Positions 1 through 13,265 of a stretch of 13,265 nucleotides of DNA are shown in pieces. Under the pieces are notes generated by a model, which saw only the letters and a list, made by a program, of their open reading frames with translations, was not told the DNA's origin and ran no database searches. Origin of the DNA: a virus (Duplodnaviria > Heunggongvirae > Uroviricota > Caudoviricetes). The DNA is taken from IMG/VR virus record IMGVR_UViG_2939152649_000005. One strand, 5' to 3'. Each line of letters begins with the position of its first letter. Position 1 is the first letter of the stretch. A program made the position numbers and the translations under genes.

Positions 1-1236
<1,236 letters not shown>

Positions 1237-1240
<4 letters not shown>

Positions 1241-1563
1241 TTTTTCCAGAGGCGGTCGAACTCCGCCTTCGCAAAATAAGCGGAAGCCTGGCGAAGGATA
1301 TCGTTACTGCGGCGCAGTTCACGATTTTCACGTTCCAGCTCTTTCAGACGCTGACGTTCAGCGCTGGTGAGCCCACCATCACCGCCCCCGGTATCCCGCT
1401 CATGCTGGCGAACCCAGACACGCAGAGTCTCCGGCGTACAGCCAATCTTTGGGGCAATGGAACAAATTGCCGCCCACTGTGAGTCATATTCATCCTGACT
1501 TTCCAGAACCATACGGACTGCCCGTTGACGGACTTCGGGGGAAAAACGAGTATTTTTAGTCAT
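1237..1563 (-). CDS. IS3-family transposase OrfA (HTH/leucine-zipper N-terminal part)
   Basis: 108-aa [33 protein letters not shown]...RLWKK, recalled as the IS629-group OrfA. Ends in an A-run (TGGAAAAAATGATG) overlapping the orfB start, as expected for a -1 frameshift window. Confidence 0.9.
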
Positions 1564-1617
1564 CCTGTTTACCTCTTTCTCAGGAAGTTTAGTCTCCAGG
1601 ATTCCCGGGGCGGTTCA

Positions 1618-2615
1618 TACCCCATTACGCGCAAAGCCTTGTTCACCGTATTCTCACTCATCGGCTTACGTGGATCGTGATCGCCCACAAAAATCAGCTC
1701 TCAATTTCCGCTCATGCTTTTGATCTTTTCCAAAATACTTAGGGCCTGCCGCGACAAAGGTACAAGGTGTGGTGTCCGCATCTTCGAGCCACGCTGAGAA
1801 TGCTTGACTCCTTCCAGTTGCTCACGCTCACCTGGGATTGTCCACATAGCCGTTTCAAAATCTACTTCTGACCAGCGGGCAAAATGCAGCTCGCTCGAAC
1901 GGATGAAAACCAATAAAGTGAGTTCAACCGCCAGTCGAGTTAACGGTCTGCCAGAATAGTGATCTATGCGATGAAGTAATTCAGGTATACGGTTCAGTTC
2001 AAGAGCTGCACGGTGCTGTCTTTTCGCCGTAGCAACCGCACCTGCAATCTCTTGCGCGGGGTTGTAGTCGATTAAGCCGCTCTGAACGGCAAAGCGCATA
2101 ATCGCGGTAGTACGCTGCTGTAAACGGGCGGCAACTTCGAGCCGCCCGGATGACTCGACTGCTTTAATGGGTACAAGAAGATCCCGCGTCTTCAGTTCCG
2201 CAATGTTCCGCTTACCGATAGCAGTAAAGAGATTATCCTCCAGACTTTTCAAAACACGAGCGCTATGCGATGCCGACCACTTCTGATTGCTGGCGTGCCA
2301 GTCTCTGGCGACTACTTCAAACGTTATCGCCTCTTGTTCCTGTTCTACCTTAACAGCTTTCTTGTTTTCACTGGGATCGACACCATTAGCTAAAAGCTTA
2401 CGAGCCTCATCCCGGCGTGCCCTGGCATCCGCCAACGACACTTCGGGGTATTTCCCCAATGCCAGCATCTTCTCTTTACCGCCAAAGCGATAACGTAGCC
2501 GCCAGTATTTGGAGCCGTTAGGGTGAACCAGCAAAACCATGCCTTCACCGTCGGTCAGCTTATAGGCTTTTGCTTCAGGCTTAGCCGAACGAACCTTCAC
2601 ATCACTCAGAGCCAT
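1618..2615 (-). pseudogene. int: P4-type (DUF4102 + tyrosine recombinase) integrase, inactivated by an in-frame TGA at 1701-1703 and truncated at the IS junction
   Basis: The N-terminus MALSDVKVRSAKPEAKAYKLTDGEGMVLLVHPNGSKYWRLRYR... (ATG at 2613-2615, AAGGA upstream) is collinear with the intact paralog at 12003-13265. The ORF stops at ...KSMSGN*, but the same frame continues ELIFVGDHDPRKPMSENTVNKALRVMGY, aligning with SGKGEVIFPSDHDPKKVMSENTVNSALRVMGY of the paralog; the stop replaces a Gly codon. Homology ends at MGY, exactly at the IS terminus, so the C-terminal ~85 aa are missing. Confidence 0.85.
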
Positions 2616-2813
2616 GATGAGTATCCTTTCAAGGGTTCTGTGTGGGTACAAACATTATCGAACCGGGAAATACCCGCAGTTGTACCCGCATCAGTAAGTT
2701 GATGTAGATTGAATCAGGTTGACTTAGGTTGAGTGAAAAAGCGAGGAAAGCCTTGCGGATACTGGATTTTAGGCACAAAAAAAGACGTCCGTTGACGTCT
2801 ATTGATGTTCCGA

Positions 2814-2835: not shown

Positions 2836-2883
2836 AAACACAATAACTACATGTATTATATAATAAATAAAAATAAAATTTTC

Positions 2884-2907
2884 TTTTATGCCCCCTTTTA
2901 TGCCCCC
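2884..2907. repeat. Perfect tandem duplication of the 12-mer TTTTATGCCCCC
   Basis: TTTTATGCCCCC TTTTATGCCCCC read directly at 2884-2907, immediately after a ~40-nt stretch of almost pure A/T. Confidence 0.8.
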
Positions 2908-3139
2908 ACTGAAATTTCACCACCATAACTTTGCTTGATTAATAACCAAATTACATGAATATTTTGGTTTGGGTCCGAATAACGGATACAAACCAGAACA
3001 GGACCTACCACCAGAACCGCTATTAGTTGTATCGAATTTGACACAATGCCCGCCCGCAGTAATCAAGCCGTCAAGCAAATATCGTTGTGCTGTTCATGAC
3101 ACACCTGATCCCTCAAGAATTGCTCACAGCGAGAAAAAT

Positions 3140-4195
3140 ATGGATACCCCGGACATAATTTCCGTACCAGAGGTCACTGCTGCGACAGAACCGCAGTCCT
3201 CTGCAGAATGCTTCACCTTTGGCGATCCCATTCCCGTACTGGACCGGCGCGAACTGCTGGACTATGTGGAATGCGCGCAGATGGATCGCTGGTATGAGCC
3301 GCCGGTGAGTTTTGCAGGGCTGGCACGTACCTACCGAGCAGCCGTACATCACAGTTCACCAATTGCCGTTAAGCGTGACATTCTCAGCAGTACCTACATC
3401 CCACACCGCCTGCTCAGTCAGCAGTCTTTTGCCCGTTTCGTTCAGGATTATCTGGTGTTTGGTAATGCCTATCTGGAAAAGCGTACTAACCGGCTGGGCG
3501 GCGTCCTCACACTGGAGCCAGCGCTGGCGAAATACACCCGGCGCGGCGTTGACCTGGAATCCTACTGGTTTGTTAACTATGGCCTGACAACGCAGCCTTA
3601 TGAGTTCACCAGAGGCAATATTTTTCACCTGATGGAACCGGATATTAACCAGGAAATTTACGGGCTGCCCGGCTACCTCTCCGCCATTCCGTCAACCCTG
3701 CTCAACGAGTCCGCAACGCTGTTCCGCCGGAAGTATTACATCAACGGCAGCCATGCGGGCTTCATCATGTACATGACCGACGCGGCGCAGAATCAGGAGG
3801 ATGTGAACAACATCCGCAAGGCAATGAAAAGCGCCAAAGGGCCGGGCAATTTCCGCAATCTGTTTATGTACTCACCCAATGGCAAAAAGGACGGCATCCA
3901 GATCATCCCGCTGTCAGAGGTGGCGGCGAAAGATGAGTTTCTGAACATCAAGAACGTGAGCCGTGATGACATGATGGCAGCGCACCGCGTGCCGCCGCAG
4001 ATGATGGGTATCATCCCCAGCAACACCGGCGGCTTTGGCGATGTGGAAAAGGCCAGCCGTGTTTTTGTCCGCAACGAACTGATGCCGCTGCAGAAGCGAC
4101 TGCAGGAGCTGAATAACTGGCTGGGCGAAGAAGTGATCTGCTTCGAGCCTTATTCTTTACAACTTGATGAAAGTGCTGATAGCAACAGGGGGTAA
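3140..4195 (+). CDS. Possible P2 gpQ-type phage portal protein (351 aa from the first ATG); the family assignment is tentative
   Basis: Long ORF with ordinary codon usage. The track ORF begins at a TTG at 2969; the first ATG is at 3140 (MDTPDIISVPEV...). Its size matches the ~340-350 aa I recall for P2 Q, and it is transcribed toward a structured candidate cos region, as P2 Q is. I cannot confirm the family from memory. Confidence 0.5.
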   Translation: MDTPDIISVPEVTAATEPQSSAECFTFGDPIPVLDRRELLDYVECAQMDRWYEPPVSFAGLARTYRAAVHHSSPIAVKRDILSSTYIPHRLLSQQSFARFVQDYLVFGNAYLEKRTNRLGGVLTLEPALAKYTRRGVDLESYWFVNYGLTTQPYEFTRGNIFHLMEPDINQEIYGLPGYLSAIPSTLLNESATLFRRKYYINGSHAGFIMYMTDAAQNQEDVNNIRKAMKSAKGPGNFRNLFMYSPNGKKDGIQIIPLSEVAAKDEFLNIKNVSRDDMMAAHRVPPQMMGIIPSNTGGFGDVEKASRVFVRNELMPLQKRLQELNNWLGEEVICFEPYSLQLDESADSNRG

Positions 4196-4198
4196 TGT

Positions 4199-4561
4199 AT
4201 GGGATGGATCGGCGTTGATCTGGATGGCACGCTGGCGGTGTACCCGCCAGAGAGCGGGGCGCTAATAGGTGATGCCATTCCCGGCATGGCGGAAAGGGTC
4301 CGCAAATGGCACAAGGATGATATTGAAGTACGAATTTTTACCGTCCGGGCTGGTTCGCGTGCCGGAGTGAAGCAAGTTAAAGCCTGGTTGAAAGCCAATG
4401 AACTGCCGGACCTGATGGTGACGAACGTTAAAGACAGCGGCATGGTGGAATTATGGGATGACAGAGCGATACGTGTTATCCGTAATACCGGTTCAGTATG
4501 CGCCGGTTGCAACGGCACATCGCAGTTCCACCACCATTCAGGAGATTTCACCAACTGCTGA
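4199..4561 (+). CDS. Small HAD-superfamily-like protein (putative minimal phosphatase/nucleotidase) with a Cys/His-rich C-terminal tail
   Basis: ATG at 4199 is 3 nt after the upstream stop and is preceded by AGGGGG. The N-terminus MGWIGVDLDGTLA matches HAD motif I (hhhhDxDGT). Motif-II-like Thr in RIFTVRAG, downstream lysines, and motif-IV-like ELWDDRA occur with spacing compatible with a cap-less HAD fold. The tail is SVCAGCNGTSQFHHHSGDFTNC. Confidence 0.6.
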   Translation: MGWIGVDLDGTLAVYPPESGALIGDAIPGMAERVRKWHKDDIEVRIFTVRAGSRAGVKQVKAWLKANELPDLMVTNVKDSGMVELWDDRAIRVIRNTGSVCAGCNGTSQFHHHSGDFTNC

Positions 4562-4592
4562 GCCGGCAGGCATTCCGTTAACCATTACCTGA

Positions 4593-4633
4593 ACGCCTCA
4601 GCAGCATTCTGCGGGGCGTTAGCTTTATTTATG
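4593..4633 (+). terminator. Rho-independent terminator candidate downstream of the HAD-like gene
   Basis: AACGCCTCAGCAG-CATT-CTGCGGGGCGTT forms a ~12-bp stem (one bulge, one G-U pair) with a 4-nt loop, followed by AGCTTTATTTAT. Confidence 0.5.
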
Positions 4634-4863
4634 GCATGAACCATGCCACGGCACATGCGCCGCTCAGGTTGCCATTTCCCCCCTCTGCGCGCGCTGCCCC
4701 CCACGCCTGCCCGCTTCGCTTAACAGAATGGTTTTCATGCACCCCGTAAATCGCCTCAGGAGCCGCCACACAAGGGCTTTCACGTCAAAAATGATGCATG
4801 AGACTCATGCGTTTTCATGCGCCATAGACATGCACTCATGCGCTCTCAGGCCAGCCAGGAAAA

Positions 4864-4897
4864 AGGCGTAAAAAATCCCGGTGCCGGGCCGGGATTA
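4864..4897 (-). terminator. Rho-independent terminator for the minus-strand late operon (after the delta-like gene)
   Basis: Perfect 8-bp stem AATCCCGG/CCGGGATT with a 7-nt loop. On the minus-strand transcript the hairpin is followed directly by a U-run (UUUUUACGCCUUUU). It lies 20-50 nt beyond the stop of the 4917-5189 gene. Confidence 0.6.
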
Positions 4898-4916
4898 GGT
4901 AGGCGTTTTTTGCTAA

Positions 4917-5189
4917 TCAGACAGGGATTTGCTGGCGGCTTGATAACTTTGATGCAGAGCCATAGCGATTGAGCGTTTGCTGTTGTTTTTCCGGCATTTG
5001 TGCTTTGTCTGATTCCTGTTCATTGCGCCGGGGCTTCATAATTATCTTATCCACACTTTCCAGAGCGGTAAATGTGCAGGAACATTCAAGATTCTGGCAC
5101 TGATACCATGAGCGTTTAACCGACGGTGCTTCATAGGCGGTGGTTCTGGCGTGTGCAACGGTGCCGCATTCAGGACATTTCAGCGCCAT
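4917..5189 (-). CDS. Ogr/Delta-family zinc-finger late-gene transcriptional activator
   Basis: 90-aa protein MALKCPECGTVAHARTTAYEAPSVKRSWYQCQNLECSCTFTALESVDKII... has the CxxC...CxNxxC arrangement and the HART/YxCxN motifs I recall from P2 Ogr and P4 Delta. Its ATG overlaps the stop of the upstream gene (ATGA), indicating translational coupling. Confidence 0.85.
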   Translation of the reverse strand: MALKCPECGTVAHARTTAYEAPSVKRSWYQCQNLECSCTFTALESVDKIIMKPRRNEQESDKAQMPEKQQQTLNRYGSASKLSSRQQIPV

Positions 5190-5950
5190 CAGATACCCTC
5201 CATATCACGGTTACGTTTCTGCAGCTCTTCACGTTCCTGACGGATCTTCATTTTGTGAAGGGCCGCCGGTGACGGGATTTTGCTTAAATCGACACGAGCC
5301 GCATAATCCGGCGCAACGCCCGCCAGTTTAAACACAGGGTCCTGTTCCGGCATCGCAGTGTTAGCAAGAGCCGGTTTGGTGATATGTTTGTGAATAAAGT
5401 CTTTCAGCAGTGTGTCCGGGTCATTAACTGAATTCACCACCCCCACAACGGCACTGGCTTCCCGCCCCATTGTGGTTTTGAGCAGGCTCAGTGTCTGGAT
5501 TAACGCCTTACCATGCGCCTGCATGAAGTCTTCCCAGATTTGCTTTGCGCGAATTTCCACAAGGGTGTTATGTGCGCTGATATACTGCCCGGCTAATTTC
5601 CCGGCTTCCTGCGGTAATAAGGCATTTTCGCTTTCCTGAGCTGCCAGCAGTTCATCAAAATCCTCAAGCGTTTCTCGTCCCAGCGCAATTTCCGTGCGCA
5701 GTTTTTTCATTTCCTTTGAGACTACGCCCTGACTTTCACGAAACAGCGTGCGCCACTCCTCATTCAGCGCGTTCGTCGTGGCTTCCATTTCAGCCCGGCG
5801 CTGGCGGATTGTCGCAATATTATCCGCTGCCGCTTTCTGCCGACGACGTGCTTCAAGCCATGCGCTTCTGGCTGTGTTCAGGGTTTCCATTGCCTGCTGC
5901 GTTACAGCCGGAAAAGTGGAAAGGTTGTTATTCTCTGCGGTGTTGTTCAT
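5189..5950 (-). CDS. Psu/Sid-family protein (P4 polarity-suppression / capsid-size-determination-like), 253 aa
   Basis: ATG at 5950 preceded by AGGAG. Segments QQAMETLNTARSAWL and EDFMQAHGKAL resemble regions of P4 Psu as I recall it (QQAFDTCQNNKAAWL, NDFMQQHGTAL). The protein is ~60 aa longer than P4 Psu, closer in length to Sid, and sits directly upstream of the delta-like gene as sid does in P4. Confidence 0.65.
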   Translation of the reverse strand: MNNTAENNNLSTFPAVTQQAMETLNTARSAWLEARRRQKAAADNIATIRQRRAEMEATTNALNEEWRTLFRESQGVVSKEMKKLRTEIALGRETLEDFDELLAAQESENALLPQEAGKLAGQYISAHNTLVEIRAKQIWEDFMQAHGKALIQTLSLLKTTMGREASAVVGVVNSVNDPDTLLKDFIHKHITKPALANTAMPEQDPVFKLAGVAPDYAARVDLSKIPSPAALHKMKIRQEREELQKRNRDMEGI

Positions 5951-5984
5951 GACTTCTCCTGCCGGGTAGGTTCGTTACGTCAAT

Positions 5985-6040
5985 TGTGTCGTGACTGACA
6001 CAAGCGCACTATCGGCGCTCAGTGTGTGGTGGCTGGCACA
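5985..6040 (-). promoter_or_regulatory. Candidate Ogr/Delta-dependent late promoter region upstream of the Psu/Sid-like gene: two TGT-N12-ACA dyads
   Basis: TGT-N12-ACA at 5985-6002 (inside the palindrome TTGTGTC-gtgact-GACACAA) and at 6023-6040. The second is centred ~80 nt upstream of the ATG, compatible with the -55 position described for P2/P4 late promoters. The motif is short, so chance is not excluded. Confidence 0.35.
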
Positions 6041-6127
6041 ACGGGCGTTTGCGGTTATTCAGACGCGGCCATGACAGCCAGCCAGATAAAAATGCCTCTG
6101 TTTCAGCCTGCTTTATGTCCCGGATGC

Positions 6128-6326
6128 GGTGAAACAGGTGGAACAGGTGTTACAGCATTGTTTTGTAAAACATTTATATGCACATCACAGGTGAAACATC
6201 GCAGGTAACAAGGTGGAACAGCGGATCGGCTGGCGTTCCACCTGTTCCACCTCACTATTTCAGAAGGTGAAACAGGTTTAGCCCTTGTAAAATACGGTTG
6301 TTCCACCTGTTACACTTGTTACCCTT
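6128..6326. repeat. Iteron array (about 10 copies of GGTGRAACA / TGTTYCACC in both orientations); candidate replication origin or crr-type site bound by the alpha-type primase
   Basis: Read directly: GGTGAAACAGGTGGAACAGGTG (6129-6150), GGTGAAACATCGCAGGTAACAAGGTGGAACAG (6190-6221), GTTCCACCTGTTCCACC (6236-6251), GGTGAAACAGG (6266-6276), GTTGTTCCACCTGTTACACTTGTTACCC (6298-6325). The core is close to the TGTTCACC type-I iteron I recall for P4 ori/crr. The array lies between the 3' end of the primase gene and the late operon. Confidence 0.6.
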
Positions 6327-6350
6327 AATAAATAAGACTCACGCAAAGCC

Positions 6351-9023
6351 TTAACCTAGAACCTCGCTGTTGAAGACATAGAGCCTGCGGGGATTCATCT
6401 CTGGCGGGCGAATGTTTGTCTGCAGCTTGCCATCGGTGGAGGGCAGCAGATATCCACGATCCGCGCACAGACGTGCCACCTTGCGCGGGTCAAATCCCCG
6501 GCAGATTTCTTTCCAGCCGGACGGCATGACGTAGAACGTGGTGACAGCTTCCGTGCCCTGCGCGGTACTGCCTTTCTCCACCCTGCGCCAGCCCACCATA
6601 TTGCCGGGGCGGTTGCGCTCGTCGTGCCAGTCAGCAAAGCGGCTGTACTGATTCGCGGTAAAGAAACTGCGTACCTGCTCCAGTGCGGCAATATCTTCCT
6701 GATTGGCGGTGTGCCCGCGATCTTTCAGCCATGCGTTTAGGCAGACGCGGGTTGCCCGCAGCGCTTCACCCTCAGGCCAGCCGGTAATACCCAGCCGGGT
6801 TGCCAGCTCGCCCGCCATCGCCACCAGTGCAAAGCGGTTCACAGCCCGGCCTACCTGATTACCCGCATCTTTCGGGGTCAGGGCGGCGGTATATTCCTTC
6901 ATCAGTGACTTTGCCTGTGCCGTCAGCCCGTTAAGGTCAGCGGTCAGGGCTTTCAGCCACTCCCTGAACGGCGAACCGTAGTAGCTGGACGTGGCCCACT
7001 CCAGATGTTCCGCCAGAGCCTTGCCGCTGTCGAAGCCGTGCAGCTCCTCAAATACGCCAAATTTCCCGGAATCGCTGGGGATCTGGATCATCCTGACTTC
7101 CATCCCGGCAAAGGTACGCTCACCGGCTTTTGCCGCATGTTCGGTCAGTGACAGCTCGCCGGTTGAAAAGAACAGCAGCCGCCACTGCTTACGGGTGCGC
7201 AGCTCACCGTCCGTACCGGCACGGCCCTTGCCCTGACCGTTTGCCAGCATGTAGGCGATATTACCCGCCTCGCGTCCGTCCACCTCCCGGATCTCATCAA
7301 GCATCATGGCGGCATCGTTGCGGCGGCTGGCGCATCCCTCCAGCGCGTTGCCGGTTGCCCGCCACGTCTGCCAGTAATCAGGCCCGCCACAAACGGAGGT
7401 TGCCGCTTTCATGGTGGTGGTCTTACCGTCAGTCGATTCCCCCTTGAGGTGGTAGCCGCCGCCGTCCATCCCAACCAGCCGTAACAGGGGTGCAGCAAAG
7501 GCCAGACTGACGGCAAACGCCACGCGGGAGTTACCGGTGCAGTAACGGGAAACGTGCTCCCGCCATTCCTCCGTTGTACCTGACACACGGAAATCGCGCC
7601 CCTGCACGGAAGTGGTCTGGAGAATGACACCCTCTGCACCTTCACCGCTGACCTCATCCTGCAGGACGTAAACCTGACCATGCCAGCCAGTGCGGCTGAC
7701 GCAGGTCACGCGGCGTTCCGGTTTACACAGCGAGATATATTCCATCAGGCGGGCGCGGGCCTCACCGGTGGTGCTGATATAGGACAGCCCGTTAACCAGC
7801 AGTACCCGGCGCAGTTCCTCACCGCTACCACTGAGCATTTCCATCGGCATCGCCCAGCGGCGGCGCTCTCCCCATGTATCTTCCCACTCCAGCAGTCGCC
7901 CGAAATTACCGCCATCGGCATCGCAGGTGATTGCCGTCACGCGCAACGGGTTGCATATTTTGACGTTCTGGATCTCCGTCTCACCGTTGCGCTGTACCTG
8001 TTTTTCATACCAGAGATATTCCTGGGTAAGACGGAACCCGTGCGGCAACTGCGTGCGGCCTTCTCCGCACAGTACAAGACCGTTACGAAAGGCTTCACGG
8101 GCACGTGTAATACCGTGCTCACGGTGGAAGTCATTCCAGTCAGCTTTAATTTCTCCCGGTGGCAGCGTCACCCAGCCACCGACTGATTTTGCCGCCCGTT
8201 CAGCAAAGGATCTGCCGGGATTCTCGCCCCCGTCCTGAAAATCGTTATCACCGGCGATGATAATTTTTACCTCAGGCCAGCGTGCCCGCAGCGCCTGTGC
8301 GACGTTGGGCAGGTTGCCCGCCGATATGGCCGCCACTACGCATCCGGCGGTGAGCTGGCTTACCGTCAGCGCCGTGGCGTAACCTTCGGTAATCACCACC
8401 TGTACCGGCGGTTCAGACGGTAACGGGCTGAGCGCCACAAACGCGCCTTTCATCGTGCTGCCGGGCAGTATGCTTTTTTCACCCGTCGGGGCGATAAGCT
8501 GTGCACCGGTCACGGCTCCGGCGTTCGTCGTGAGCGGTAACAGCAGGGAACCGGCAGGGAAATCCTTACCACTGATATGCTGCACGCTCCCGGTCAGGGA
8601 GGCCGGGTATCCGGCGAACCCTTTTCCGGTCAGATAGGGGCTTTCTCCCGTGTGACTCTCTTTCATCAGGGCCGCCACGGTAAGGCTCATATCGCGTTTA
8701 GGGGCTTTTTGCCTGGCGGGCTTAACGGGCAGTTCCTGCACATCCGGCACATTAAGCACCTGCGCCACCTCCTGCGCTGCCTTTCTGACGCCGTAACCGG
8801 TTATGAGCTTAACCAGATCCAGACCATCACCATTGCCGCACTGGCTGCAAATCCACGTCCCGCGCCCGTCGAGGTCATCGAGGCGGAAGCGATCCTTGCC
8901 CCCACATTTCGGGCAGGGACCGTGCCTGCCGTTTTCAGGTACATCAATACGCAGCATCTGCAGAATGACGGGCCATTTTCCCCGCGCTGCGGCTGAAATC
9001 TGCGTAACCGTCTGTGTTGTCAT
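6351..9023 (-). CDS. P4 alpha-type bifunctional DNA primase-helicase (zinc ribbon + Toprim-like primase + P-loop NTPase)
   Basis: 890-aa ORF. N-terminal CPKCGGKDRFRLDD...WICSQCGNGDG is a CxxC...CxxC zinc ribbon. IIAGDNDFQDGGENPG is a Toprim-like acidic DxD motif. GYHLKGESTDGKTTT is a Walker A (GxxxxGKT). Its ATG overlaps the stop of the upstream small ORF. Confidence 0.9.
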   Translation of the reverse strand: MTTQTVTQISAAARGKWPVILQMLRIDVPENGRHGPCPKCGGKDRFRLDDLDGRGTWICSQCGNGDGLDLVKLITGYGVRKAAQEVAQVLNVPDVQELPVKPARQKAPKRDMSLTVAALMKESHTGESPYLTGKGFAGYPASLTGSVQHISGKDFPAGSLLLPLTTNAGAVTGAQLIAPTGEKSILPGSTMKGAFVALSPLPSEPPVQVVITEGYATALTVSQLTAGCVVAAISAGNLPNVAQALRARWPEVKIIIAGDNDFQDGGENPGRSFAERAAKSVGGWVTLPPGEIKADWNDFHREHGITRAREAFRNGLVLCGEGRTQLPHGFRLTQEYLWYEKQVQRNGETEIQNVKICNPLRVTAITCDADGGNFGRLLEWEDTWGERRRWAMPMEMLSGSGEELRRVLLVNGLSYISTTGEARARLMEYISLCKPERRVTCVSRTGWHGQVYVLQDEVSGEGAEGVILQTTSVQGRDFRVSGTTEEWREHVSRYCTGNSRVAFAVSLAFAAPLLRLVGMDGGGYHLKGESTDGKTTTMKAATSVCGGPDYWQTWRATGNALEGCASRRNDAAMMLDEIREVDGREAGNIAYMLANGQGKGRAGTDGELRTRKQWRLLFFSTGELSLTEHAAKAGERTFAGMEVRMIQIPSDSGKFGVFEELHGFDSGKALAEHLEWATSSYYGSPFREWLKALTADLNGLTAQAKSLMKEYTAALTPKDAGNQVGRAVNRFALVAMAGELATRLGITGWPEGEALRATRVCLNAWLKDRGHTANQEDIAALEQVRSFFTANQYSRFADWHDERNRPGNMVGWRRVEKGSTAQGTEAVTTFYVMPSGWKEICRGFDPRKVARLCADRGYLLPSTDGKLQTNIRPPEMNPRRLYVFNSEVLG

Positions 9024-9403
9024 ACTTCCCCCTGATACAGCGAAACACCCGAGCTGCAGAAGTCATCAAATGCCGCCGGAAGTGTGCGGTACAGCTCCGC
9101 CATCACTTCACAGCCGCGCACAGTCAGTACCGGTGGCGCGGTCAGCAATGATGGCTCCAGCATGTCAGTCAGCAGCGCCAGTGCAGCCGCTGCTCCCTGT
9201 GCTTCGCCATATTCGTTAATCAGTGCGCACTCGATATGCAGGGCAATGGCCATTTCAATACGTTCAACCGTCAGGCTGTGCGGACCATAGTGATCGCAGC
9301 CGGTTTCGGTCAGCGCTTTCTGGCGCCAGGCCGATGCAATAGCCCGCCGGTAAAGCGCAGTGGTCATTTCTGCCGGAAAAATAGAAACCTGCGGCTGGTT
9401 CAT
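9020..9403 (-). CDS. Hypothetical protein (127 aa), last of four small coupled ORFs upstream of the primase gene
   Basis: Start overlaps the stop of the 9400-9684 ORF; stop overlaps the primase start. Same strand and operon as the primase. No motif recognised. Confidence 0.55.
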   Translation of the reverse strand: MNQPQVSIFPAEMTTALYRRAIASAWRQKALTETGCDHYGPHSLTVERIEMAIALHIECALINEYGEAQGAAAALALLTDMLEPSLLTAPPVLTVRGCEVMAELYRTLPAAFDDFCSSGVSLYQGEV

Positions 9404-11333: not shown

Positions 11334-11972
11334 TCATTTCCCATACTTAATAATATCATTCCCAATTTTTACTTTTTTATAAAACGTGGCTTTCTTAACC
11401 CCTTCCAGTGAAATTTGATGCTCATTACAAAAAGAGATAATATCATTATATATCACACTATTATCACCATAACTTGCCTTACCATATTTTTTGAGCAACT
11501 CAATTAATAATGAAATTAATTTACAATTATTATTATCTTCATCCTCTTTTCTGTATTGCCCTCTGCCATTACTCCTTAACTTTTTACCAACTTCATATAA
11601 TTCACTTCCTCCTAACATCATTAAAATATCGCCCCAATCTTTATTTTTTACTTGTTGTAGCAATGCGTTATCAATTCTTTCCTTAATTTCAGGAGGTACA
11701 ATATCTTCCCTCTGAAAGATATAAGCGGCAGTTAATACTAAATTCGCTTCCACTTTTTGCGTGGCGGATATGTTTTTATATTCATTAATTAATTGTAGAT
11801 TTCTGGTTATTGCCTTTCTTAACCTAATAACCTCTTTTAATTGAATATCAGTTAATTCATCATTTTCTGTATCATAGTCAAAACCATTCATAGCAAGCGC
11901 TACTTCGTGCGGCGTAATGTATGTTAACCTATTAAAATAAAACAAATTATTATCAGATTGAGTGTTATTCAT
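11334..11972 (-). CDS. Hypothetical protein, 212 aa, strongly AT-rich orphan cargo gene directly downstream of the integrase
   Basis: ATG at 11972 with GGAG 8 nt upstream, 30 nt after the integrase stop on the same strand. Asn/Lys/Ile-rich composition and AT-rich codons contrast with the GC-rich replication module. No motif recognised. Confidence 0.7.
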   Translation of the reverse strand: MNNTQSDNNLFYFNRLTYITPHEVALAMNGFDYDTENDELTDIQLKEVIRLRKAITRNLQLINEYKNISATQKVEANLVLTAAYIFQREDIVPPEIKERIDNALLQQVKNKDWGDILMMLGGSELYEVGKKLRSNGRGQYRKEDEDNNNCKLISLLIELLKKYGKASYGDNSVIYNDIISFCNEHQISLEGVKKATFYKKVKIGNDIIKYGK

Positions 11973-12002: not shown

Positions 12003-13265
12003 TTATTTTCCATGCACACGCGCAAAATCATATGGTGTGATAGATCCATTCTTGTTAGCATCAATGTAATCAGCCCACCATTGCAGCATTAATTTTCTTT
12101 CTTCAAGATATTCAGATGTATGCATGTATGAACCTTTCACGTTTTTTCGTTCAACGTGACTTAGCTGTCTTTCAATGGCATCATCATTCCATAGTTTCGA
12201 CTCACTTAGCGCACCACGCGCCATAGTTCTAAAACCATGCCCACATACTTCTGTCTTCGTATCATATCCCATTACACGTAAGGCACTATTTACAGTATTT
12301 TCACTCATTACTTTTTTAGGATCATGATCGCTGGGAAATATAACCTCGCCTTTACCGCTCAAGGCATGTAAACGTTTAAAAATATCAAATGCTTGTTTGC
12401 TAAGCGGAACAATATGTTCAGTTTTCATCTTCATCCCACGCTCAGAGTGTTTTACGCCGGGAATAGGTTTACGAATTCCGGGTATCGTCCACTCGCTTCG
12501 TTCAAAGTTAACCTCACTCCATCGAGCAAAACGCATCTCACTTGAACGAATAAATGTGAGTAGCGTTAATTCAACGGCAAGCCGTGTCATTAGTCGCCCT
12601 TTATAGCGTGATAGTCTTTCAAGAAACTCAGGGATTCTTTTTGGGGGTAGTGCTGGGTGATGGGTTGCCTTAACGCTTAAAAGCGCTCCAGCCATATCAC
12701 TGGCAGGATTTGATTCAAGAAGGTCATTCTGCACACCGAAACGCATAATTGCGGTTACGCGCTGCATCAGTCGCTGCGCAACATCATGTTTACCTGCCGC
12801 ATCAACAGCTTTGATCGGATTGAGAAGCTGGCTGGTTCTCAACGTTCTGGCGTCAATTTGACCTATCGAGGGGAAAATATACTGCTCAAGCGTCAGCAGA
12901 ACGCGACGGCTATGATCTTCGCTCCAAGTTAGGTTACTTGCGTGCCATTGCCTTGCGATAGTTTCAAATAAATATGCCCCCTCAATTTCAGCTTGTGCCC
13001 CCTTTTGCTCAGCTTTGGGGTCAATGCCCTGAGACAACAATTTCTTTGCTGCATCGCGCTTACCCCTAGCCTCAGCCAAAGTGATCGTCGGGTATACACC
13101 AAAAGCGAGCCGATCTTCCTTTTTGTCAGATGGGCGGCGATATTTCATGCGCCAATACTTGGAACCTTTTGGGGAGACTTCAAGATACAAGCCGCCTCCA
13201 TCAGCCATTTTATAGGCTTTCTCTTTCGGCTTTGCGGTCTCTATCTGGCGAGCATTGAGTTTCAT
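12003..13265 (-). CDS. int: P4-type tyrosine integrase (DUF4102 N-terminal domain + catalytic domain), apparently intact, 420 aa
   Basis: The ORF runs from an ATG formed by the last 3 nt of the window to a stop at 12003. The N-terminus MKLNARQIETAKPKEKAYKMADGGGLYLEVSPKGSKYWRMKYR is collinear with the pseudogene at 1618-2615. It retains the C-terminal part the pseudogene lacks, including HGFRTMARGAL (box II H-x-x-R) and downstream Tyr residues. Confidence 0.9.
   Translation of the reverse strand: MKLNARQIETAKPKEKAYKMADGGGLYLEVSPKGSKYWRMKYRRPSDKKEDRLAFGVYPTITLAEARGKRDAAKKLLSQGIDPKAEQKGAQAEIEGAYLFETIARQWHASNLTWSEDHSRRVLLTLEQYIFPSIGQIDARTLRTSQLLNPIKAVDAAGKHDVAQRLMQRVTAIMRFGVQNDLLESNPASDMAGALLSVKATHHPALPPKRIPEFLERLSRYKGRLMTRLAVELTLLTFIRSSEMRFARWSEVNFERSEWTIPGIRKPIPGVKHSERGMKMKTEHIVPLSKQAFDIFKRLHALSGKGEVIFPSDHDPKKVMSENTVNSALRVMGYDTKTEVCGHGFRTMARGALSESKLWNDDAIERQLSHVERKNVKGSYMHTSEYLEERKLMLQWWADYIDANKNGSITPYDFARVHGK

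Follow-up and report, generated by a model that had tools for sequence, protein, structure and literature searches.

We analyzed a 13,265-nucleotide (nt) stretch of viral DNA (IMG/VR record IMGVR_UViG_2939152649_000005; hereafter, the window), which is 100% identical to DNA of Escherichia coli NCTC11023 (NZ_LS483297.1) and carries a P4-like satellite. Two plus-strand open reading frames (ORFs), separated by 3 nt and both annotated as coding sequences in RefSeq, are located between the cos region and attR of this satellite. By its sequence, the first, termed Q' (351 amino acids [aa]), is a portal gene of the P2 family, and the second, termed orf120 (120 aa), is predicted to encode a small HAD-type phosphatase. 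Together with the promoter-like DNA preceding them, these genes probably represent the end of a helper phage's left arm, captured by the satellite at cos and kept.

Q' matched Pfam entry PF04860 (E value, 3.5e-18; 66.3 bits for a cutoff of 39.1), the NCBIfam equivalog TIGR01540 (portal_PBSX; 346 bits for a cutoff of 166), and phrog_68 (1.3e-171). It was 61% identical to gpQ of P2 (204/334; residues 10 to 343 against 11 to 342) and collinear with it to the end, and 86 to 93% identical to portals from Fels-2 and from P2-like phages infecting Klebsiella, Yersinia, and Salmonella. A first-pass annotation, made by a model from the letters of the window without database searches, had suggested a P2 Q-type portal here, and these matches bear the suggestion out, the predicted product being a full-length one. 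The first ∼20 residues of Q' have no phage counterpart, and the same segment is hypervariable among phage portals too. The cut made in gpQ removes about 26 N-terminal residues. Proteolytic processing of gpQ takes place during maturation (PMC7552001). A sequence search of solved structures with Q' returned no relative. Q' departs from the P-Q operon in having no preceding P gene, only a stump of ∼14 codons and promoter-like DNA, and the block, which is bounded by an att fragment, contains no P, O, or N gene. The genes are thus not part of an intact P2 prophage, as had been stated in the first-pass annotation.

The att fragment reads TCCGGCCTTCG-CACCA on the minus strand and matches the 3' end of the leuX tRNA-Leu gene at 17/18 nt, with one 1-nt deletion. 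Owing to this indel, the repeat was passed over by an automated direct-repeat finder, and we identified it by eye. The leuX gene itself (locus L001, 26631 to 26715) is found outside the window, close to its right end and 165 nt past the start of the integrase gene. leuX is the attachment site of P4. To the left of the att fragment lies a second P4-type integrase, a pseudogene (1701 to 2651, minus strand) that begins 165 nt from it, exactly the distance between tRNA and integrase at the right end. The att fragment and integrase pseudogene that had been noticed on this side are therefore both real, and because the fragment and the matching 165-nt spacing put the boundary to the left of Q' and orf120, the two genes lie within the satellite, between cos and attR. 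From leuX to attR, the satellite measures ∼10.6 kb.

We then looked into what occupies this interval in related elements. The P4 hotspot has been defined as lying between cos and int (Rousset et al. 2022, PMC9122126). In sister satellites that share the backbone, exactly the stretch between delta/cos and attR is taken up by Drt3a/b (C21) or by an AAA ATPase gene and a hypothetical gene (XYEH3314), so the slot holding Q' and orf120 is the P4 hotspot, in agreement with the position first assigned to the pair. The junction of the block was found in 13/5,426 complete E. coli genomes. The satellite backbone was the same in every case, and the insertions were at leuX and at a tRNA-Arg gene next to dsdC, with different integrases. 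The exact Q' protein resided in this satellite in all 8 distinct contexts, which include two copies in one genome, and there are records of it for Salmonella and other Enterobacteriaceae as well; an invariant 21-mer of the junction also matches Pantoea stewartii and Pseudocitrobacter vendiensis. The genome with two copies, GCA_020271725.1 (CP084290.1), has its Q'-bearing satellites at 2.44 Mb and 4.25 Mb (L020 and L021).

Between Q' and cos we found one of two genes, orf120 or a DUF4062 gene in the opposite orientation; the latter also takes the place of the final ∼10 codons of Q'. Q' is thus the constant flank and the gene next to it varies: both members of the two-gene cassette proposed earlier are in place, but they do not form one swappable unit. 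The alternative DUF4062 protein has 321 aa (L003, 13364 to 14329; L004, 13178 to 14143). At a query coverage of at least 80%, it was found in 9 complete E. coli genomes only, and all examined copies are in these satellites. It had no PADLOC or NCBIfam match and no close homologue in phage records. We considered whether it might be the DUF4062 cargo of the P2 hotspot described by Rousset et al. and rejected this, as it is a different protein and is absent from phage records. Like the DUF4062 protein, Q' and orf120 matched no known or candidate defense model in PADLOC; an anti-phage role, which the hotspot position might suggest, and a defense function of Q' or orf120 in general, are therefore unsupported.

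The origin of the block was apparent from its comparison with P2-like phages. In strain ECONIH5, an intact P2-like prophage has N and O on one strand and P, Q, and orf120 on the other, followed by cos, a HEPN hotspot gene, and A; the orf120 proteins of this prophage and of the window are identical. The exact orf120 protein occurred in 10 contexts: 5 P2-like phages, always directly after Q, and 5 copies of this satellite. DNA homology to phage extends from ∼3194 through Q' and orf120 to 60 nt beyond, and resumes in conserved patches of cos. Within it lies a 480-bp tract that matches the ECONIH5 prophage at 100% identity and takes in the last ∼55 nt of Q', orf120, and ∼60 nt of the DNA beyond; the body of Q' outside this tract is 73 to 92% identical to that prophage. 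A megablast search with 4196 to 4618 gave 99.5% identity to ECONIH5 and A29. We read this tract as a recent exchange between phage and satellite, with crossovers inside Q and just before cos, for which either direction is possible. A terminator-like hairpin follows orf120 (∼4594 to 4632); since it is not significantly more stable than shuffled sequences (z = −0.78), a terminator is suggested by its position only.

The cos region was delimited by a five-way alignment of the window, three other satellites, and one P2-like prophage. Its core reads GCGCGCGC(T)GCCCCCCACGCCTGCCCGC...TGGTTTTCATGCACC, or GCGCGCGC-GCCCC-CACGCCTGCCCGC...TGGTTTTCATGCACC, and the variable hotspot DNA of each satellite begins directly to the left of it. 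The satellite-side cos region is common to ∼750 E. coli genomes. The exact 19-nt cohesive end of P2 was absent even with up to 3 mismatches allowed, and phage records searched by blastn with the cos interval gave weak matches only (68 to 79% identity). The element uses a variant cos like that of Fels-2-type phages, in which we infer the cleavage site from similarity to the P2 cohesive end. Judged by these homologies, the block is the cos-proximal end of the left arm of a P2-family (Fels-2-like) helper.

The module common to the satellites starts at ∼3022, and the DNA between this point and Q' contains two TGT-N12-ACA dyads (3028 to 3045 and 3086 to 3103), a −10-like TATCGT (3080 to 3085), a predicted transcription start near 3092, and an ATG at 3096 that opens the P stump. 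TGT-N12-ACA is the motif recognized by the Ogr/Delta activators at P2 late promoters, and in P2, 56 nt separate the annotated activator site from the start of P transcription. Both dyads and the −10-like element are kept in all 8 aligned satellites. In an ungapped alignment, 3022 to 3140 matched the O-P intergenic region and the 5' region of P at 59/119 positions for ECONIH5 and at 57/119 for Fels-2, values that none of 2,000 shuffles reached; the aligned stump reads MTHLIPQELLTARK and the phage P protein MNTTLTPADLDPRR. This region is thus probably a remnant of the P-operon late promoter, followed by the stump of P, and may still act as a promoter. A 1-nt indel in an A-run (3096 to 3158) sets whether the stump reads in frame into Q': in-frame alleles have a fusion ORF, MTHLIPQELLTARKN-MDNPDK, the window-type allele is out of frame and leaves a 20-codon upstream ORF that overlaps the start of Q', and the EC1515-type allele has lost the ATG of the stump. 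The alleles compared were those of the window, L003, L005, L006, L014, and L036.

While the adjoining stump decays, Q' itself is intact. All 26 junction-bearing loci, several of which are duplicate fetches of the same genomic place, had an intact Q' of 341 to 374 aa; an additional copy, that of KFu022, is interrupted by an IS3-family element, and the satellite carrying it has a broken alpha gene as well. Six signatures (AECFTFGDP, SFAGLAR, QQSFARF, WFVNYG, FTRGNIF, and IRKAMK) occurred together in 4/4 satellite-type portals, and none of 140 phage-type portals had more than one; peptides specific to Q' include SFAGLAR, QQSFAR, WFVNYGLTTQPYEFTR, and IRKAMK. At the DNA level, Q' of the window is 92.6 to 94.6% identical to other satellite alleles, and its identity to the Q of any E. 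coli prophage does not exceed ∼90%. Pairwise ratios of nonsynonymous to synonymous substitutions (dN/dS) among satellite alleles were 0.015 to 0.07 at dS values of 0.17 to 0.50, and differences between orf120-type alleles were evenly spread along the gene.

We then analyzed the sequence of the orf120 protein. The gene is preceded by a GGGGG Shine-Dalgarno sequence and has 1,151 homologues of ∼105 to 185 aa. Four HAD motifs (D7-L-D9-G-T11, T48, K78, and D87-D88) were invariant or nearly so in 55 aligned homologues. The AlphaFold2 (AF2) model had a mean predicted local distance difference test score (pLDDT) of 88, with low confidence for residues 111 to 120, and its top Foldseek matches in the PDB were nearly all HAD phosphatases (GmhB, BT_0820, KdsC, the phosphatase domain of T4 Pnkp, and MDP-1), with weak scores (best E value, 2.9e-3; template modeling [TM] score up to 0.58). 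The protein also matched phrog_1238 (1e-9) and phrog_415 (1e-8). It had no match in Pfam, NCBIfam, or PADLOC, and a sequence search of solved structures gave nothing meaningful. Of the profile searches recommended in the first-pass annotation, the Pfam one thus succeeded for the 351-aa protein and not for the 120-aa protein, whose HAD-like nature was nevertheless recovered from its motifs and fold. With all four catalytic motifs and a predicted HAD fold, orf120 is a HAD-type phosphatase, its activity being predicted. Its C terminus (4520 to 4561) forms a Cys/His-rich tail, CAGCNGTSQFHHHSGDFTNC; in enterobacterial homologues the pattern C-x-x-C ... T-[ND]-C is preserved at the end, and the tail is missing in most metagenomic homologues.

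The remainder of the satellite has the gene content of a P4-like element (Table 1). From right to left, the order is a P4-type integrase (12003 to 13265), an AT-rich 212-aa ORF, AlpA, an Icd-like gene, DUF5375, the Toprim/DUF927 alpha primase (6351 to 9023), a sid-type gene, an Ogr/Delta gene, the cos region, and the pair at 3140 to 4561. The P4-like core set is therefore present (int, AlpA, alpha primase, a Psu/Sid-family gene, and Ogr/Delta), as are a P2-type cos with its putative cleavage site and tRNA att boundaries, attL being leuX. The sid-type gene is 87% identical to the gene in the sid position of XYEH3314. There is no separate psu in the window satellite, where delta adjoins the sid-type gene, and the sister XYEH3314 has the order sid-psu-delta. 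psu is missing too from C21, a satellite without Q', so its loss is not tied to the portal. Two dyads placed at ∼−17 and ∼−55 from a plausible start of the sid-type gene have a layout that resembles that of the P4 sid late promoter (Psid), and 4 of the 6 TGT-N12-ACA dyads in the window lie upstream of sid or Q'. The 212-aa ORF between the integrase and alpA (11334 to 11972) has a GC content of ∼0.30, matches phrog_30524 (function not known), and has no PADLOC or NCBIfam match; satellites at the tRNA-Arg site hold a different, 324-aa ORF in its place, and this interval looks like a second variable slot. Beyond attR, window positions 1 to 2651 are a tandem island at leuX with an IstB-like fragment at 51 to 236. 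The integrase pseudogene of this island is truncated by an IS3-family element (350 to 1563) containing the ALIL frameshift pseudoknot RF01497 (1166 to 1282), which was the sole match of an Rfam scan of the whole window.

TABLE 1 Features of the window, with the evidence for each
Feature	Coordinates	Strand	Evidence
attR, 3'-terminal fragment of tRNA-Leu (leuX), left boundary of the satellite	2815–2831	−	17/18 nt identity
P2-type late-promoter-like region and putative stump of terminase gene P	3022–3139	+	Dyads, −10-like element, ungapped phage alignment
Q', predicted full-length P2-family portal gene, 351 aa	3140–4195	+	PF04860, TIGR01540, phrog_68, gpQ identity
Tract 100% identical to ECONIH5 prophage	4141–4620	+	Sliding-window identity
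orf120, predicted minimal capless HAD-type phosphatase, accessory gene of P2-like phages	4199–4561	+	Motifs, AF2, PHROG
cos region, shared with P4-like satellites and P2-like phages	4686–4840		Five-way alignment
delta, Ogr/Delta-type late activator	4917–5189	−	PF04606, 1.1e-16
sid-type capsid-size gene (Psu/Sid family)	5189–5950	−	PF07455, 3e-8
Psid-like late promoter, two TGT-N12-ACA dyads 38 bp apart	5985–6040	−	Geometry only

We propose that the satellite acquired the cos-proximal end of a helper's left arm at cos and, once P had been lost from it, retained it as a late-gene module, a reading to which we give a probability of about 0.6. The right arm of the satellite would have been joined to the left arm of a helper at the shared cos, presumably the sole region of homology between the two types of element, by recombination or by joining of cohesive ends. 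The far junction would have fallen just upstream of the P-operon late promoter, and nearly all of P would then have been deleted, leaving the promoter, the P stump, Q, orf120, the terminator-like hairpin, and cos. During helper development, the satellite's Delta and the helper's Ogr would act on the dyad upstream of Q', as expected at Psid, to give a Q'-orf120 transcript; Q' would supply portal subunits to procapsids made of the helper's gpN and gpO under Sid, and orf120 would dephosphorylate some substrate. As both flanks of the gene between Q' and cos are homologous to helper phages, that gene could be swapped with the helper. We put Delta/Ogr-dependent late expression of Q'-orf120, and the use of Q' as a portal in satellite capsids, at roughly even odds. 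Of the two origins that had been offered as alternatives, a P2 left-arm fragment joined at cos and a satellite-encoded portal variant, each would be partly true: a P2-like arm appears to have been joined at cos, and it now seems to be a stable, satellite-borne portal module.

Several observations weigh against this proposal. The promoter homology was significant in the ungapped register test alone: a Smith-Waterman local alignment was not significant, and 3022 to 3140 had no significant match to P2's own promoter. In Fels-2-type phages, the center of the dyad lies ∼55 nt from the P start codon, which makes the transcription-start geometry uncertain. The AF2 model of Q', built from 40 close homologues, had a pLDDT of only 41.7. 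The module is rare, with 13 genomes against ∼856 that have the satellite backbone. Finally, backbone genes show dS values of 0 to 0.02, far below those among Q' alleles, so the history of the module is not that of the backbone, and some Q' alleles contain phage-like patches, e.g., MGIMPSNVGGFG. For these last two reasons, the low dN/dS could in part have been brought in with phage portal sequence and not be due to selection in the satellite.

One could go further and suppose that a P4-like lineage has started to supply some of its capsid itself, with a diverged portal, made from the captured late promoter, that biases procapsid initiation or terminase docking in the satellite's favor or frees the satellite from the helper's P-Q dosage or portal variants. 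This is a tentative idea that we regard as possible but somewhat doubtful.

The separate history of the hotspot also bears on whether Q' is selected at all. The hotspot module (2836 to 4740) differs by 5 to 10% between satellites in which delta, sid, alpha, and DUF5375 (4740 to 9403) are 99 to 100% identical. Q' might then be hitchhiking phage DNA, either recently acquired or overwritten by gene conversion from helpers, with orf120 or the DUF4062 gene as the sole selected cargo, a view in keeping with the phage-like patches, with the 480-bp tract, and with the very fast turnover reported for hotspot contents (10.64898/2026.02.27.708500). We consider this passive reading unlikely, since the junction-bearing copies of Q' all remain intact next to a decaying P stump and the satellite alleles have in common signature substitutions that are absent from 140 phage portals. 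The even spread of their differences, the invariance of the upstream dyads and −10-like element, and the closer DNA identity among satellites than to any E. coli prophage Q likewise argue for maintenance in the satellite.

Interference, with Q' as a decoy or poison portal directed at the helper or at competing P2-like phages, or as a trigger or blocker of an immune sensor, would suit a slot in which sister elements have Drt3 or an ATPase system. Interference with helpers is known for satellites, and the partner gene of other alleles encodes DUF4062, a domain recorded among hotspot proteins. Such a role is nonetheless improbable: besides the negative PADLOC results for all three proteins, Q' is full length and strongly constrained throughout, as in working portals, orf120 is the ordinary companion of Q in intact phages, and the satellite would be poisoning the very capsids on which it relies.

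Selection on Q' merely as DNA homology, which together with cos would capture cargo from the helper's cos-adjacent hotspot, could account for a tract of identity that ends inside the 3' end of Q' and just before cos, and for the two different cargos. It is very unlikely, however, as homology requires no intact frame, start codon, or promoter, all of which are conserved, and as the DUF4062 gene was absent from phage records and is, within E. coli, all but confined to these satellites. That the genes belong to a decayed P2 prophage beside the satellite can practically be dismissed: their DNA is unquestionably P2-like in origin, but the block has the att fragment on its left, no other P2 genes are present, and the junction has moved along with the satellite, appearing at other att sites and in other genera.

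Compared with gpQ of P2 and the Fels-2-type portals of the Peduoviridae P-Q operon, Q' belongs to the same family and has the same length and orientation toward cos; some P2-like phages share the downstream orf120, and the dyad-bearing upstream region resembles the P-operon promoter. Unlike phage Q, Q' has lost P except for the short stump, resides in a P4-like satellite, and has five lineage-specific motif substitutions and its own ∼20 N-terminal residues. The orf120 protein has the DxDxT, S/T, K, and DD motifs and the Rossmann-like core of ∼105 residues of small capless HADs (BT_0820 [2obb], GmhB, KdsC/YrbI, and the T4 Pnkp domain), and it differs from these named proteins in belonging to no Pfam or NCBIfam family, in the weak scores of its structural matches (E values of 3e-3 or worse; TM scores of 0.4 to 0.58), and in its Cys-rich tail. 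As in the P4 hotspot (PMC9122126; 10.64898/2026.02.27.708500), the slot lies against the cos core and its content differs between near-identical backbones; unlike the usual hotspot content, it holds in the window a helper structural gene and a phage accessory gene, with no recognizable defense system.

P4-like satellites are described as having very little phage homology and as relying on the helper for every structural protein (PMC8628076), and P2 and P4 as almost never sharing hotspot genes, with a single case (10.64898/2026.02.27.708500); the tables of the latter study contain one Phage_portal entry, in the sheet of P2 pseudogenes. The papers on P4-like diversity and hotspots that we searched make no mention of a portal in P4-like elements. 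The present lineage contradicts both published points in a small way, with a conserved and apparently late-regulated copy of a helper portal and with a 480-bp tract identical between phage and satellite. If the portal is used, it would offer a genetic handle on portal supply and specificity in the competition between helper and satellite, and on how satellites gain structural autonomy. Phage-inducible chromosomal islands of the capsid-forming type (cf-PICIs) also encode their own portal, but within a whole capsid module (capsid, portal, connectors, and terminase small subunit) unrelated to P4, whereas the satellite described here has only the portal, a near copy of the helper's, and neither the window nor its sister elements contain capsid, connector, or small terminase ORFs of their own. 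Should Q' truly serve as the satellite's own portal, this lineage would be a lasting link through which genes could pass between the hotspots of helpers and those of satellites, now thought isolated from each other, and an intermediate between capsid pirates such as P4 and capsid-forming satellites.

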